The notes under the pieces are model-generated. The model worked only from the letters and a program-made list of their open reading frames with translations, searched no databases and was not told the origin of the DNA. Of a stretch of 64,000 bases of DNA, positions 2,400-11,431 are shown piece after piece (position 1 is the first letter of the stretch; every line of letters begins with the position of its first letter). Both the position numbers and the translations under genes were made by a program. Location of the stretch: the NCBI RefSeq assembly GCF_056712565.1, contig NZ_CM160072.1; one strand, given 5' to 3'.

Positions 2400-3305
2400 A
2401 TGAGAAAGATAAAAATAGGGCTGGCGCTGGGATCTGGCGCGGCAAGAGGTTGGTCGCATATTGGCGTAATTAATGCGCTAAAAAAAGTGGGTATTGAAAT
2501 TGATATCGTTGCAGGATGTTCAATTGGTTCGCTGGTGGGCGCTGCCTATGCATGCGATCGATTATCTGCGCTGGAAGATTGGGTGACCTCTTTCAGTTAT
2601 TGGGATGTTTTACGCCTGATGGATCTCTCCTGGCAGCGCGGTGGGTTACTGCGCGGCGAGCGTGTCTTCAATCAATATCGCGAAATAATGCCGGAAACAG
2701 AGATCGAAAATTGTTCCCGTCGCTTCGCGGCTGTTGCCACCAATTTAAGTACTGGGCGTGAATTATGGTTTACTGAAGGCGATCTCCATCTTGCTATTCG
2801 TGCATCATGCAGTATTCCAGGACTAATGGCACCCGTTGCGCATAACGGCTACTGGCTGGTTGATGGCGCTGTAGTTAACCCAATTCCTATTTCCCTCACG
2901 CGTGCATTGGGGGCTGATATTGTGATAGCGGTCGACCTGCAGCACGATGCTCATTTGATGCAACAAGATTTGCTCTCCTTTAATGTCAGTGAAGAAAATA
3001 GCGAGAATGGTGATTCTCTGCCGTGGCATGCGCGTCTGAAAGAAAGGTTAGGCAGCATAACGACACGTCGGGCGGTGACAGCGCCAACGGCAACAGAGAT
3101 TATGACCACTTCTATCCAGGTGCTGGAGAACCGCCTTAAAAGGAACCGCATGGCAGGTGATCCGCCCGATATTCTGATTCAACCTGTTTGCCCGCAAATA
3201 TCTACGCTTGATTTCCATCGCGCGCACGCTGCCATTGCGGCCGGGCAGCTGGCAGTGGAAAAGAAAATGGACGAACTTTTGCCGTTGGTACGCACCAACA
3301 TTTGA
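2400..3305 (+). CDS. rssA: Patatin-like phospholipase RssA
   Basis: 301 aa from MRKIKIGLALGSGAARG with GxSxG (GCSIG) and DGA motifs; the track ORF starts 13 codons earlier. Confidence 0.9.
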   Translation: MRKIKIGLALGSGAARGWSHIGVINALKKVGIEIDIVAGCSIGSLVGAAYACDRLSALEDWVTSFSYWDVLRLMDLSWQRGGLLRGERVFNQYREIMPETEIENCSRRFAAVATNLSTGRELWFTEGDLHLAIRASCSIPGLMAPVAHNGYWLVDGAVVNPIPISLTRALGADIVIAVDLQHDAHLMQQDLLSFNVSEENSENGDSLPWHARLKERLGSITTRRAVTAPTATEIMTTSIQVLENRLKRNRMAGDPPDILIQPVCPQISTLDFHRAHAAIAAGQLAVEKKMDELLPLVRTNI

Positions 3306-3396
3306 CCAGAATTTTTATCTACACTTAAGTTAATTCTGACAGGCGCAGGTGGCAATAGCATGCCACTATTGAGTAAAGCCAGTCAGGGGAGAGAAC

Positions 3397-4410
3397 ATGA
3401 CGCAGCCATTGGTCGGAAAACAGATTCTCATTGTTGAAGATGAGCAGGTATTTCGCTCGCTTCTGGATTCGTGGTTTTCCTCATTGGGAGCGACAACGGT
3501 ACTGGCGGCTGATGGGGTGGATGCCCTTGAGTTGCTGGGAGGTTTCACTCCAGACCTGATGATATGTGATATCGCGATGCCACGAATGAACGGGCTTAAA
3601 CTGCTGGAACATATACGCAACAGTGGTGACCAGACACCGGTTCTGGTGATATCTGCCACTGAAAATATGGCAGATATTGCCAAAGCGTTACGTCTGGGCG
3701 TTGAAGATGTTTTGCTGAAACCGGTTAAAGATCTGAATCGCTTGCGCGAGATGGTTTTTGCCTGTCTCTATCCCAGCATGTTTAATTCCCGCGTTGAGGA
3801 AGAGGAAAGGCTTTTTCGCGACTGGGATGCAATGGTTGATAACCCTGCTGCAGCGGCGAAATTATTACAGGAACTACAACCGCCAGTTCAGCAGGTGATT
3901 TCCCAATGCCGGGTTAATTATCGTCAATTAGTTGCCGCGGACAAACCCGGCCTGGTGCTTGATATTGCCGCACTTTCGGAAAACGATCTGGCATTTTATT
4001 GCCTTGATGTCACCCGAGCTGGACATAATGGCGTACTTGCTGCCTTGTTATTACGCGCATTGTTTAACGGATTATTACAGGAACAGCTTGCACACCAAAA
4101 TCAACGGTTGCCAGAGTTGGGCGCGTTATTGAAGCAGGTAAACCATTTACTCCGTCAGGCCAATCTGCCGGGGCAGTTTCCGCTATTAGTTGGCTATTAT
4201 CATCGCGAACTGAAAAATCTCATTCTGGTTTCTGCGGGTCTGAATGCGACGTTAAATACCGGCGAACATCAGGTGCAAATCAGTAATGGTGTTCCGTTAG
4301 GCACTTTAGGTAACGCTTATTTGAATCAATTGAGCCAGCGATGCGATGCCTGGCAATGCCAAATATGGGGAACCGGTGGTCGGCTGCGCTTGATGTTGTC
4401 TGCAGAATGA
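3397..4410 (+). CDS. rssB: Response-regulator adaptor RssB (targets RpoS to ClpXP)
   Basis: 337 aa, N-terminal receiver domain (ILIVEDE...D) plus PP2C-like C-terminus; K-12 synteny. Confidence 0.92.
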   Translation: MTQPLVGKQILIVEDEQVFRSLLDSWFSSLGATTVLAADGVDALELLGGFTPDLMICDIAMPRMNGLKLLEHIRNSGDQTPVLVISATENMADIAKALRLGVEDVLLKPVKDLNRLREMVFACLYPSMFNSRVEEEERLFRDWDAMVDNPAAAAKLLQELQPPVQQVISQCRVNYRQLVAADKPGLVLDIAALSENDLAFYCLDVTRAGHNGVLAALLLRALFNGLLQEQLAHQNQRLPELGALLKQVNHLLRQANLPGQFPLLVGYYHRELKNLILVSAGLNATLNTGEHQVQISNGVPLGTLGNAYLNQLSQRCDAWQCQIWGTGGRLRLMLSAE

Positions 4411-6680: not shown

Positions 6681-7298
6681 ATGGCACAGCTATATTTCTA
6701 CTATTCCGCAATGAATGCGGGTAAGTCTACAGCATTGTTGCAATCTTCATACAATTACCAGGAACGCGGCATGCGCACTGTCGTATATACGGCAGAAATT
6801 GATGATCGCTTTGGTGCCGGGAAAGTCAGTTCGCGTATAGGTTTGTCATCACCTGCAAAATTATTTAACCAAAATTCATCATTATTTGATGAGATTCGTG
6901 CGGAACATGAACAGCAGGCAATTCATTGCGTACTGGTTGATGAATGCCAGTTTTTAACCAGACAACAAGTATATGAATTATCGGAGGTTGTCGATCAACT
7001 CGATATACCCGTACTTTGTTATGGTTTACGTACCGATTTTCGAGGTGAATTATTTATTGGCAGTCAATACTTACTGGCATGGTCCGACAAACTGGTTGAA
7101 TTAAAAACCATCTGTTTTTGTGGCCGTAAAGCAAGCATGGTGCTGCGTCTTGATCAAGCAGGCAGACCTTATAACGAAGGTGAGCAGGTGGTTATTGGTG
7201 GTAATGAACGCTACGTTTCTGTATGCCGTAAACACTATAAAGAAGCGTTAGAAGTCGGCTCATTAACGGCTATTCAGGAAAGGCATCGCCACGATTAA
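6681..7298 (+). CDS. tdk: Thymidine kinase
   Basis: 205 aa with P-loop (SAMNAGKST) and C-terminal Zn-ribbon cysteines. Confidence 0.95.
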
Positions 7299-7424
7299 TA
7301 AGAATTTCTTTACTGACAGGGTGAGCAGGGCGCTTTTATCCTGTCAGTTCGTTTTACGCACTTCTTCCGGGCTATACACCCTTCTCGGCAGTTTTTTAAC
7401 GCCGCTATACGCCTCACAGAGCGC

Positions 7425-8630
7425 TTATACACCGACATTGACTTGTAACCTGTAAAGTACAATATCGCTGTGTGTAGGCGTTATACATCGTCGCAAATAT
7501 GATGAAGGACAATGCTGCCGGTTTATGGAAAAGTTGTTTTGGGAAAACAAAAAACGGCCCCAGAAGGGGTAATGCCAGTCAGTTAAGCAACTGACTGGCT
7601 CTTTTTCGGGGCTGTGGGGTATTTCCAGGGCCTCTCCTTTACCACTCTCGGGAAGGCCCTTTCCCTTCTTGTCGGTAATTTCACTGGTTGTCCCATACTT
7701 GCAAGATCGCGCATCAGCTCCGGTATACGTCCCGGTGAAGCGTATGGCGTCCGTCATCGACGTCAGCAGATGGCAGACTTTTCCTTTGCGCGTCACGGTC
7801 AGCAGGCGGGCTGTCACCTCATTTCCCAGTCCCGGCCACTTTTTTCGTGCCTGCGGGCTGATGTTCAGCTTCACCAGATGATCGCCTTTACCCAGTTTTC
7901 TGATCTCTTCATATTGCGCTCCCTTTCTGAGAGGGATCATCCAGTGGCGGTGTTCTCCCGCCAGGCTCCAGGCATTTAACAGTCCTGGTGAGTAATAACC
8001 TTTATCCATTAACGTCAGAGTGTTATCGCCGGTTTGTTCTATAAGTTGCTCAGCAAGCTCATTTTCGCTGTTCTTCATCGTGCCGAAGGCTGCAGTCGTC
8101 AGCAGATGGCTGGTCAGTTCCATCTGGCAGACCATTTTGACCTGCGGGTAGAGCGCCGGGTTCCCGGCATGTGTCTGGCGGGGGAAGGCTGCATCGTTCT
8201 CTGGTGTATCCGGTGTGCGCCAGAACACACCATCGATGGCCAGCAGGGTCAGGCCGCACCAGTGCGGATGCGGCGTGGCGTTATGCCAGAGCTGCGCTGT
8301 TTTCGTGAACACGCGGCGGACAGCCTCAATTCCCAGACGCTGGCGGGTCTGAATAACGGCACTGGGGGCAACGAAGGGGCGATTGCCCGGCAGCATGATG
8401 TCCAGGCGATTCACAATCTGGTGAAGAGGTTCTTTACGCTCAAGCGCCATGCCAACAATACACCAGACCATCATTTCGAGGGGAAGACGGCGCTTGCGTA
8501 GCGTTACAGTACCTGATTCGGCAAGGCAACGAGAGATGAGTTTGGGGGCGAGGTAATCCCCCAGAGAAGTCAGTGGGTTACGCAGAGAATCGTAACGGGA
8601 TACCAAATCAAGGGCCTGCCCAATGAGCAT
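7425..8630 (-). pseudogene. IS4-family transposase (InsG-like), C-terminally divergent and reading through the IS end
   Basis: N-terminus [27 protein letters not shown]... matches IS4 transposase from memory; the last ~40 codons cross the left IR into flanking DNA; same locus as the K-12 transposase pseudogene between tdk and adhE. Confidence 0.65.
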
Positions 8631-8714
8631 ACAAAAATCCGGAAACGAGTGAGCGTTTCCGGATTCTTACACAGCCACTGGATCGGTCAACTGATCCTTA
8701 ACTGACTGGCATTA
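7569..8714 (-). mobile_element. IS4-like insertion remnant (~1.15 kb) with 12-bp target duplication
   Basis: Inverted ends TAATGCCAGTCAGTTAAG at 7569 and 8714; direct repeat ccccagaagggg at 7557-7568 and 8715-8726; inserted into the palindrome aaacggcccc-agaa-ggggccgttt. Confidence 0.7.
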
Positions 8715-8755
8715 CCCCAGAAGGGGCCGTTTATGTTGCCAGACAGCGCTACTGA

Positions 8756-11431
8756 TTAAGCGGATTTTTTCGCTTTTTTCTCAGCTTTAGCCGGAGCGGC
8801 TTCTTTCTTCGCTGCAGTTTCGCCTTCTACATAATCACGACCGTAGTAAGTATCCAGCAGAATCTGTTTCAGCTCGGAGATCAGCGGGTAACGCGGGTTA
8901 GCGCCGGTGCACTGGTCATCGAATGCATCTTCAGACAGTTTATCCACGTTCGCCAGGAAGTCTGCTTCCTGAACGCCAGCTTCACGGATAGATTTCGGAA
9001 TACCCAGTTCAGCTTTCAGCGTTTCCAGCCATGCCAGCAGTTTCTCGATCTTAGCTGCAGTACGGTCGCCCGGTGCGCTCAGACCCAGGTGGTCGGCAAT
9101 TTCAGCATAACGACGGCGAGCCTGCGGACGGTCATACTGGCTGAATGCAGTCTGCTTGGTCGGGTTGTCATTCGCGTTGTAGCGAATAACGTTACAAATC
9201 AGCAGGGCGTTTGCCAGACCGTGCGGAATATGGAACTGGGAACCCAGTTTGTGCGCCATTGAGTGACATACACCCAGGAAGGCGTTCGCAAACGCGATAC
9301 CCGCGATAGTCGCTGCACTGTGAACACGTTCACGCGCTACCGGATTTTTAGACCCTTCGTGGTAGGACGCTGGCAGATATTCTTTCAGTAGTTTCAGTGC
9401 CTGCAGAGCCTGACCATCAGAGAACTCAGATGCCAGTACAGAAACATAAGCTTCCATGGCGTGAGTTACTGCGTCCAGACCACCGAAAGCACACAGGGAC
9501 TTCGGCATGTCCATAACAAGGTTGGCGTCGACAATCGCCATATCCGGGGTCAGTGCATAGTCTGCCAGCGGATATTTCTGACCAGTAGTGTCGTCAGTTA
9601 CAACCGCAAACGGAGTGACTTCAGAACCTGTACCAGAAGTGGTGGTGACAGCGATCATTTTCGCTTTCACACCCATTTTCGGGAACTTGTAGATACGTTT
9701 ACGGATATCCATAAAGCGCAGCGCCAGTTCTTCGAAGTGAGTTTCCGGATGTTCGTACATAACCCACATGATCTTCGCAGCGTCCATCGGGGAACCACCA
9801 CCCAGCGCGATAATCACGTCTGGTTTGAAGGAGTTTGCCAGTTCTGCACCTTTACGAACGATGCTCAGGGTCGGGTCAGCTTCTACTTCGAAGAAGACTT
9901 CAGTTTCAACGCCTGCTGCTTTCAATACGGAAGTGATCTGATCAGCATAGCCATTGTTGAACAGGAAGCGGTCAGTCACGATGAGCGCACGTTTGTGGCC
10001 ATCAGTAATCACTTCATCCAGCGCGATTGGCAGGGAGCCACGGCGGAAGTAGATAGATTTCGGAAGTTTGTGCCACAACATGTTTTCAGCTCGCTTAGCA
10101 ACGGTTTTCTTGTTGATCAGGTGTTTCGGACCAACGTTTTCAGAGATGGAGTTACCACCCCAGGAACCACAACCCAGAGTCAGGGAAGGTGCGAGTTTGA
10201 AGTTATACAGGTCACCGATACCACCCTGAGAAGCCGGGGTGTTAATCAGGATACGAGCCGTTTTCATTTTCTGACCGAAGTAAGAAACGCGAGCCGGTTG
10301 GTTATCCTGGTCAGTGTACAGGCAAGAGGTATGACCGATACCGCCCATAGCAACCAGTTTCTCTGCTTTTTCTACCGCGTCTTCGAAATCTTTAGCACGG
10401 TACATTGCCAGAGTCGGGGACAGTTTTTCATGTGCGAACGGTTCGCTTTCATCAACAACGGTCACTTCACCGATCAGAATCTTGGTGTTTTCTGGTACAG
10501 AGAAGCCTGCCAGTTCAGCAATTTTATAGGCTGGCTGACCAACGATAGCCGCGTTCAGCGCACCGTTTTTCAGGATAACGTCCTGAACAGCTTTCAGCTC
10601 TTTACCCTGCAACAGATAGCCGCCGTGGGTTGCGAAACGTTCACGTACTGCGTCATAAACAGAGTCAACAACAACAACAGACTGTTCAGAAGCACAGATT
10701 ACACCGTTGTCGAAGGTTTTGGACATCAGTACAGATGCAACTGCACGTTTGATATCAGCAGTTTCATCGATAACAACCGGAGTGTTGCCCGCGCCTACGC
10801 CGATAGCTGGTTTACCGGAGCTGTATGCGGCTTTAACCATGCCCGGACCACCAGTCGCGAGGATCAGGTTGATGTCTGGGTGGTGCATCAGTGCGTTAGA
10901 CAGCTCAACAGAAGGTTGATCGATCCAGCCGATCAGATCTTTCGGAGCACCGGCAGCGATAGCAGCCTGTAGAACGATATCAGCCGCTTTGTTGGTTGCA
11001 TCTTTTGCACGCGGGTGCGGGGAGAAGATAATGGCGTTACGGGTCTTCAGGCTGATCAGCGATTTGAAGATAGCAGTTGAAGTCGGGTTAGTGGTCGGAA
11101 CGATACCGCAAATAATACCGATGGGTTCAGCGATAGTGATGGTACCAAAAGTGTCGTCTTCAGACAGAACACCACAGGTTTTTTCATCTTTATAGGCGTT
11201 GTAAATATATTCAGAAGCAAAGTGGTTTTTGATCACTTTATCTTCGACGATACCCATGCCGGATTCGGCAACGGCCATTTTCGCGAGTGGGATTCGAGCA
11301 TCTGCAGCAGCCAGAGCGGCGGCGCGGAAGATTTTGTCTACTTGCTCTTGAGTGAAACTGGCATATTCACGCTGGGCTTTTTTTACACGCTCTACGAGTG
11401 CGTTAAGTTCAGCGACATTAGTAACAGCCAT
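8756..11431 (-). CDS. adhE: Bifunctional acetaldehyde-CoA/alcohol dehydrogenase
   Basis: 891 aa with N-terminal aldehyde dehydrogenase and C-terminal Fe-ADH domains, lysine-rich tail. Confidence 0.97.

Follow-up and report, generated by a model that had tools for sequence, protein, structure and literature searches.

The window, the whole 64-kb stretch of DNA analysed here, carries an IS4-derived element in the spacer between tdk and the convergently read adhE, with hns located further upstream. The region 7300-8760 of the window matches E. coli ATCC 11775 with 100% identity, and in that genome RefSeq annotates an 'IS4 family transposase' pseudogene, frameshifted and positioned between tdk and adhE. 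The element is therefore already known, as a widespread and decayed copy of the IS4-family type element. Its features and those of the surrounding spacer are listed in Table 1.

Table 1. Features of the tdk-adhE spacer and of the element within it (positions in the window).
Feature	Position	Strand	Description
tdk	6681-7298	+	
Hairpin of tdk	~7325-7344		terminator-like
Transposase ORF	7425-8630	-	401 aa; truncated, frameshifted; ~300 IS4-like residues, then out-of-frame tail
Original T-run of the adhE hairpin	7541-7551 region		beyond the promoter-distal half
Split adhE hairpin, promoter-distal half	7552-7569	-	AAACGG + CCCCAGAAGGGG
Inverted repeat, flank + duplication + terminal repeat	7552-7587 / 8697-8732		36 nt, 89% complementary
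Target duplication, left copy	7558-7569		CCCCAGAAGGGG, 12 bp
Element proper	7570-8714	-	1145 bp; transposase on the minus strand
Left terminal inverted repeat	7570-7587	+	TAATGCCAGTCAGTTAAG, 18 bp; same as the K-12 IS4 left end
Left-end hairpin	7574-7599	+	left repeat with adjacent inverted copy; 11-pair stem, then TCTTTTT
Stranded 3' end of the transposase gene	7583-7714	-	43 codons, out of frame with the upstream part
Deletion junction	7732-7742		one copy CCGGTGAAGCG left of an imperfect 11-bp direct repeat
IS4-internal hairpin	8633-8668	-	followed by UUUUU; directly precedes the transposase ATG
Sigma-70-like promoter match	8663-8690	-	TTGACC, 16-nt spacer, TG, AAGAAT; inside the IS4 right end
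Right terminal inverted repeat	8697-8714	-	CTTAACTGACTGGCATTA; 18/18 complementary to the left repeat
Target duplication, right copy	8715-8726		CCCCAGAAGGGG, 12 bp
Split adhE hairpin, adhE-proximal half	8715-8732	-	starts 24 nt past the adhE stop
adhE	8756-11431	-	

Boundaries and identity of the element

The right terminal repeat has GACTGG where K-12 IS4 has GATCGG, and as a result the two repeats of the window element are perfectly complementary. TAATGCCAGTCAGTTAAG has just two matches in the 64-kb window, even if up to three mismatches are allowed, and in shuffled controls the mean was 0.07 matches, with none of 100 shuffles reaching two. Both copies of the target duplication directly abut the terminal repeats. 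The IS4 subgroup is characterised by the terminal repeat signature -AATR... (PMC2266710, Table 1) and by target duplications of 10-13 bp (PMC2266710). The signature is present in TAATGCCAGTCAGTTAAG at both ends, and the duplication of 12 bp, which was checked against an unoccupied site, lies within this range. The hairpin at the left end is terminator-like on the plus strand and native to IS4.

Aligned to the IS4 of K-12 (insG, 1426 bp), the element matches over its entire length, with 1121 of its 1145 positions identical (24 mismatches, 97.9% identity) and with one gap, an internal deletion of 281 bp. In intact IS4 the two imperfect 11-bp repeats CCGGTGAAGCG and CCGGGGAAGCG are 281 bp apart, at approximately IS4 positions 163-173 and 444-454, and the two BLAST segments against K-12 IS4 overlap by 11 bases at the deletion. 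One repeat copy remaining at the junction marks a deletion between short direct repeats; judged by this signature, the mechanism looks like replication slippage or illegitimate recombination. Because of the deletion, the element is smaller than the 1400-1650 bp typical of the IS4 subgroup. By its sequence the element is an internally deleted IS4, derived from IS4 and no longer a functional IS.

The left repeat, the orientation of the gene and the internal hairpins at both ends are the same as in the K-12 IS4, and the insG site likewise has a 12-bp duplication (ATCTTGGTTCTG). The window element differs from insG by the 281-bp loss, by the 24 point differences and by GACTGG in the right repeat. 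The codon changes relative to IS4 comprise 10 nonsynonymous and 7 synonymous ones (dN/dS ~0.5), a pattern that departs from strict neutrality. Part of the divergence may predate the inactivation, or it may reflect a variant IS4 lineage and not decay.

The first-pass annotation of this DNA had described an IS4-like, probably internally deleted copy of ~1.15 kb with a 12-bp target duplication, and had proposed an alignment to IS4 for mapping the deletion. This description holds: the alignment places the deletion junction and its 281 bp, and CCCCAGAAGGGG is found on either side of the element and only once in the unoccupied site. An intact element of another IS family, named there as the finding that would speak against it, is ruled out by the same alignment. 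The features that had been assigned to 7549-8735 are all present, with the coordinates of the element now slightly corrected (Table 1). The annotation had also seen that the transposase ORF diverges from IS4 in its C-terminal part and reads through the IS end, and both observations are explained by a change of frame. The ORF is identical to the IS4 transposase in 290 of 304 residues (~95%), then changes frame at the deletion and continues in a tail that leaves the IS at its left end (7570) and runs on for another 145 nt.

In Pfam searches the Nterm_IS4 domain is found in full, and DDE_Tnp_1 is matched at profile positions 3-116 of 200. IS4-family transposases are defined by a Y(2)R(3)E(6)K motif containing the catalytic glutamate (PMC2266710). 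The corresponding Y-R-E-K block, YSHRWEIELGYREIK, is missing from the ORF, and with the block deleted and the frame shifted no single ORF encodes both this motif and the full DDE triad. The stranded 3' end still encodes the last 43 residues of the IS4 transposase, with one substitution. Since the deletion removes the catalytic glutamate and shifts the frame, this copy can no longer make active transposase.

The target hairpin and the predicted adhE terminator

In strain AUSMDU00002545 the site is unoccupied and the palindrome AAACGGCCCCAGAAGGGGCCGTTT is continuous; the target and the length of the duplication, 12 bp, are both confirmed by this sequence. The insertion into a palindromic hairpin, which had been read from the window at first pass, is thereby borne out. 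A comparison of the same locus in other strains, also proposed at that stage, found three states of the spacer: unoccupied, occupied by the K-12-type element ISZ, and occupied by the deleted IS4.

On the minus strand the stem of the unoccupied hairpin is 10 bp long and includes 7 GC pairs, its loop has 4 nt, and a TTTTTTT tail follows. A 61-nt segment containing this hairpin folds with -24.5 kcal/mol (z = -4.1), and a pattern scan calls it a minus-strand terminator. From the adhE stop codon to the hairpin there are 24 nt, and from the end of tdk 254 nt; tdk has a terminator-like hairpin of its own. The unoccupied site thus combines a GC-rich stem-loop, a U-run and the vicinity of a stop codon, the features by which intrinsic terminators are recognised. 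Based on the distance to the adhE stop codon and the T-run on the minus strand, we predict that the palindrome is the intrinsic terminator of adhE and not a feature of tdk. The earlier description of a palindrome downstream of tdk was therefore right about the position, and its assignment has to be changed from tdk to adhE.

In the window the predicted adhE terminator is split and was not detected by the terminator pattern scan. The half that remains next to adhE forms a stem of only 5 bp and has no U-run. The IS4-internal hairpin at 8633-8668, which is native to IS4, occupies the stretch ~90-125 nt past the adhE stop codon and folds with -30.2 kcal/mol (z = -7.2). On the basis of this predicted fold, the hairpin is likely to block read-through from adhE, and adhE transcripts probably now stop there. 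An Rfam scan of 7200-8850 at E <= 1 gave no match, so there is no known RNA family in the spacer or the element.

The sigma-70-like promoter match in the right end of the element lies upstream of both this hairpin and the transposase ATG. If the match is the transposase promoter, the hairpin would be in the mRNA leader.

Repeated use of the hairpin and target preference of IS4

The adhE hairpin has been hit at least three times, by the deleted IS4, by an ISZ/ISCro3-like element and by a modern IS4, with duplications of 12, 10 and 11 bp, respectively. ISZ (insZ, b4573) is a 993-bp fossil of K-12-type strains, which sits in the same hairpin in the same orientation. Its ends read CAATGCC...GGCATTG, and its duplication of 10 bp, CCCAGAAGGG, has its centre at the same dyad. 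We located it at 571-1563 of the locus in strain A5, equivalent to 1294426-1295405 of K-12 (NC_000913.3). Its DNA is 95-97% identical to that of an ISCro3-type element, which belongs to the IS4 subgroup and is found on IncX1 plasmids, and the ISZ interior shares ~30% amino-acid identity with the IS4 transposase. The ISZ gene of K-12 is broken in all frames, and ISZ never transposed in mutation-accumulation lines (PMC5009759). Like the window element, ISZ is an internally deleted, inactive, single-copy fossil of the IS4 subgroup on the same dyad; unlike it, ISZ derives from another element, is 993 bp long with a 10-bp duplication and is found in 1886 compared to 1138 genomes. The deletion in ISZ comprises ~410 bp, likewise in the half of the transposase gene that encodes the C-terminus, and parallels the IS4 deletion of the window.

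The shared hairpin, orientation and similar termini, together with the last 34 bp of ISZ being 97% identical to the IS4 right end, could suggest that the two elements go back to one ancestral insertion that diverged, or that one replaced the other via the similar ends. We consider this extremely unlikely. The interiors differ too strongly at the amino-acid level, the relationship of ISZ is to the ISCro3-type element, the duplications of 10 and 12 bp are each symmetric about the dyad, and many genomes have a clean unoccupied site. A single ancestral insertion as the origin of both elements is effectively ruled out by the duplication lengths and the ~30% amino-acid identity.

The third insertion, in strain EC17CM2, is an intact modern IS4 in the adhE hairpin with 5 differences from K-12 IS4 and an 11-bp duplication. 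It occupies 2547-3971 of the locus sequence of this strain and encodes a transposase of 442 aa. The host hairpin in EC17CM2 has a G-to-A change in its stem (GGGACCGTTT).

Symmetric targets were also found for IS4 at other loci. The insertion at raiA-bamD reads AAACGG[CAGCTCAAGGGCTG]CCGTTT, the one at fiu AAACGCA[CCCACGCCGGGG]ACGTTT and the one in a hairpin associated with etsC/glcA AACCCC[CAGCTAGGCTG]GGGGTT. In total, five distinct IS4 loci were compared. Four of them have a palindrome around the duplication, in which 8-12 of 14 symmetric positions are complementary, compared to 3.5 by chance. The exception among the five is the K-12 insG site, which has A/T arms only. IS4 was reportedly found in the pheS,T attenuator by Mayaux et al. 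in 1984, and the target rule AAA-N20-TTT has reportedly been proposed; the five sites measured here fit this geometry only approximately. IS4-subgroup transposases probably prefer symmetric targets with the shape of a terminator, in which a GC-rich stem lies between an A-run and a T-run.

The targeting of palindromes is known for other IS4-family elements (PMC1525189). ISRm22, which belongs to the IS4 family, as well as IS1397 and ISKpn1 target extragenic palindromes and insert into their centre, and it is the symmetric arms that hold the specificity (PMC1525189, PMC2266710). In contrast to these palindrome- or REP-targeting elements, the target in the window is a unique, predicted intrinsic terminator and not a dispersed REP family, and IS4 also takes non-palindromic sites such as that of K-12 insG. 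The three independent insertions of IS4-subgroup elements on one terminator dyad, with duplications of different length, represent a natural experiment on symmetric target choice. This repeated use of one hairpin is the only point of the locus which we consider mildly noteworthy.

A plasmid (NZ_CP081193.1) and the chromosome of strain PK8275 have IS4 between homologous flanks with the same 11-bp duplication CAGCTAGGCTG and with opposite orientations of the element. These are either two insertions into one hairpin or an element that was inverted between its palindromic flanks.

Distribution and descent among E. coli genomes

The three states of the spacer were counted in 5426 complete E. coli genomes using short megablast queries. 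The IS4 end joined to the tdk-adhE flank (left junction) was found in ~1138 genomes, the K-12-type ISZ junction in 1886 and the unoccupied site in at least 1295. The rest of the 5426 genomes fell outside these counts; one of these (H26) was checked and has an unoccupied site. The spacer can therefore serve as a lineage marker with three states in E. coli. For annotation, care is needed with the predicted adhE terminator, which is disrupted in at least ~3000 of the 5426 genomes (1138 with IS4 and 1886 with ISZ), K-12 included.

The exact deletion junction was searched with a 51-bp query at E <= 1e-12 and was found in 226 genomes, in exactly one place in each. This number is a lower bound, as megablast requires an exact word of 28 bases; a 91-bp junction query was unusable because BLAST linked its two halves wherever an intact IS4 was present. 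Among the 226 matches, one is on a record labelled as plasmid, from a genome without a chromosomal copy; this record may represent a transferred segment or a replicon with a wrong label.

Six further carriers (Nissle, S6, an ST131 strain, E2348/69, A25 and SC455) agree with the window in the ends of the element, in the insertion point and in the 281-bp deletion, and the seven copies vary at 36 positions. These seven loci and the spread sampling of the carriers suggest that the deletion is common to all 1138 genomes with the junction. The common structure together with the 36 variable positions argues for age and vertical descent, and fits one old insertion followed by one old deletion.

The element had been called probably immobile at first pass, and the genome comparison supports this indirectly. 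As both 18-bp terminal repeats are intact and perfectly complementary, mobilisation in trans would be compatible with the sequence alone, and many carrier genomes also have intact IS4, for example at 7 or 5 IS4 places. The element could then be a non-autonomous, MITE-like derivative, which is moved by the transposase of intact IS4 copies in the same cell. This is very unlikely given that each of the 226 genomes has the junction only once and that all seven carrier loci have the deleted copy between tdk and adhE with the same flanks. Dispersed copies with their own duplications, as known from MITEs, are not seen, and neither the 226 junction genomes nor the seven loci show any sign that the deleted copy ever moved. 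In the ATCC 11775 chromosome there is one IS4-related place only and no intact IS4. In addition, IS4-family transposases such as those of IS10 and IS50 act preferentially in cis, which speaks against mobilisation by other copies.

Taken together, the element is very probably an old, internally deleted and catalytically dead IS4, which splits the predicted adhE terminator and is inherited as a single-copy fossil. An ancient transposition would have placed IS4 in the middle of this terminator hairpin, in an ancestor of the lineage with ATCC 11775, UTI89, Nissle 1917, ST131 and E2348/69; the old age of this insertion is suggested by the comparison of the carrier sequences. The site was probably chosen because of the preference of the IS4 subgroup for symmetric, terminator-shaped targets. 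Staggered cuts 12 bp apart, symmetric about the dyad of the hairpin, would have generated the duplication of CCCCAGAAGGGG. A later 281-bp deletion between the imperfect 11-bp repeats would have removed the Y-R-E-K block with the catalytic glutamate and shifted the frame. Afterwards the copy would have been inherited vertically at this one place while accumulating point mutations.

The persistence of the element may also be seen as a sign that the insertion has been kept because it is useful, either with the truncated protein inhibiting IS4 transposition or with the IS4 hairpin serving as a replacement or regulatory 3' end of adhE. The ~300-codon IS4-like part of the ORF is free of stop codons in six of the seven lineages examined, the dN/dS relative to IS4 is ~0.5 and not 1, the strong hairpin with its U-run is close behind the adhE stop, and the allele is present in about one fifth of the complete genomes. 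Nevertheless, we regard a selected function as highly improbable. E2348/69 has an additional 1-bp deletion, by which the ORF stops at codon 127, RefSeq treats the gene as a pseudogene, and the at least 1295 genomes with an unoccupied site do without the insertion. The ISZ fossil of K-12 is a parallel case of a gene broken in all frames, and a neutral fossil trapped between two conserved genes accounts equally well for the persistence.

The observations could also be joined into a wider reading, in which the adhE hairpin is a recurrent and lineage-marking landing site of the IS4 subgroup with at least three insertions, the transposases read the symmetry of A-run, GC stem and T-run, the hairpin of the fossil replaced the adhE terminator, and the truncated transposase may dampen IS4 activity in the carrier lineages. 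As a whole we think of this combination as unlikely.

The carriers differ slightly in the sequence next to the terminal repeats. The copy of the duplication which corresponds to 8715-8726 of the window is CCCCTTCTGGGG in Nissle and CCCCTTATGGGG in A25 and SC455, compared to CCCCAGAAGGGG in the window. In all three strains the 4-nt loop is inverted in this right copy, and in Nissle the inverted loop renders the 36-nt inverted repeat of flank and terminal repeat perfectly complementary. It seems that gene conversion or template switching has taken place between the two arms of the inverted repeat. Furthermore, the outer arm of the split hairpin in the right flank is GGGGCCGTTATG in S6 and the ST131 strain, which is one T shorter than GGGGCCGTTTATG in the window.
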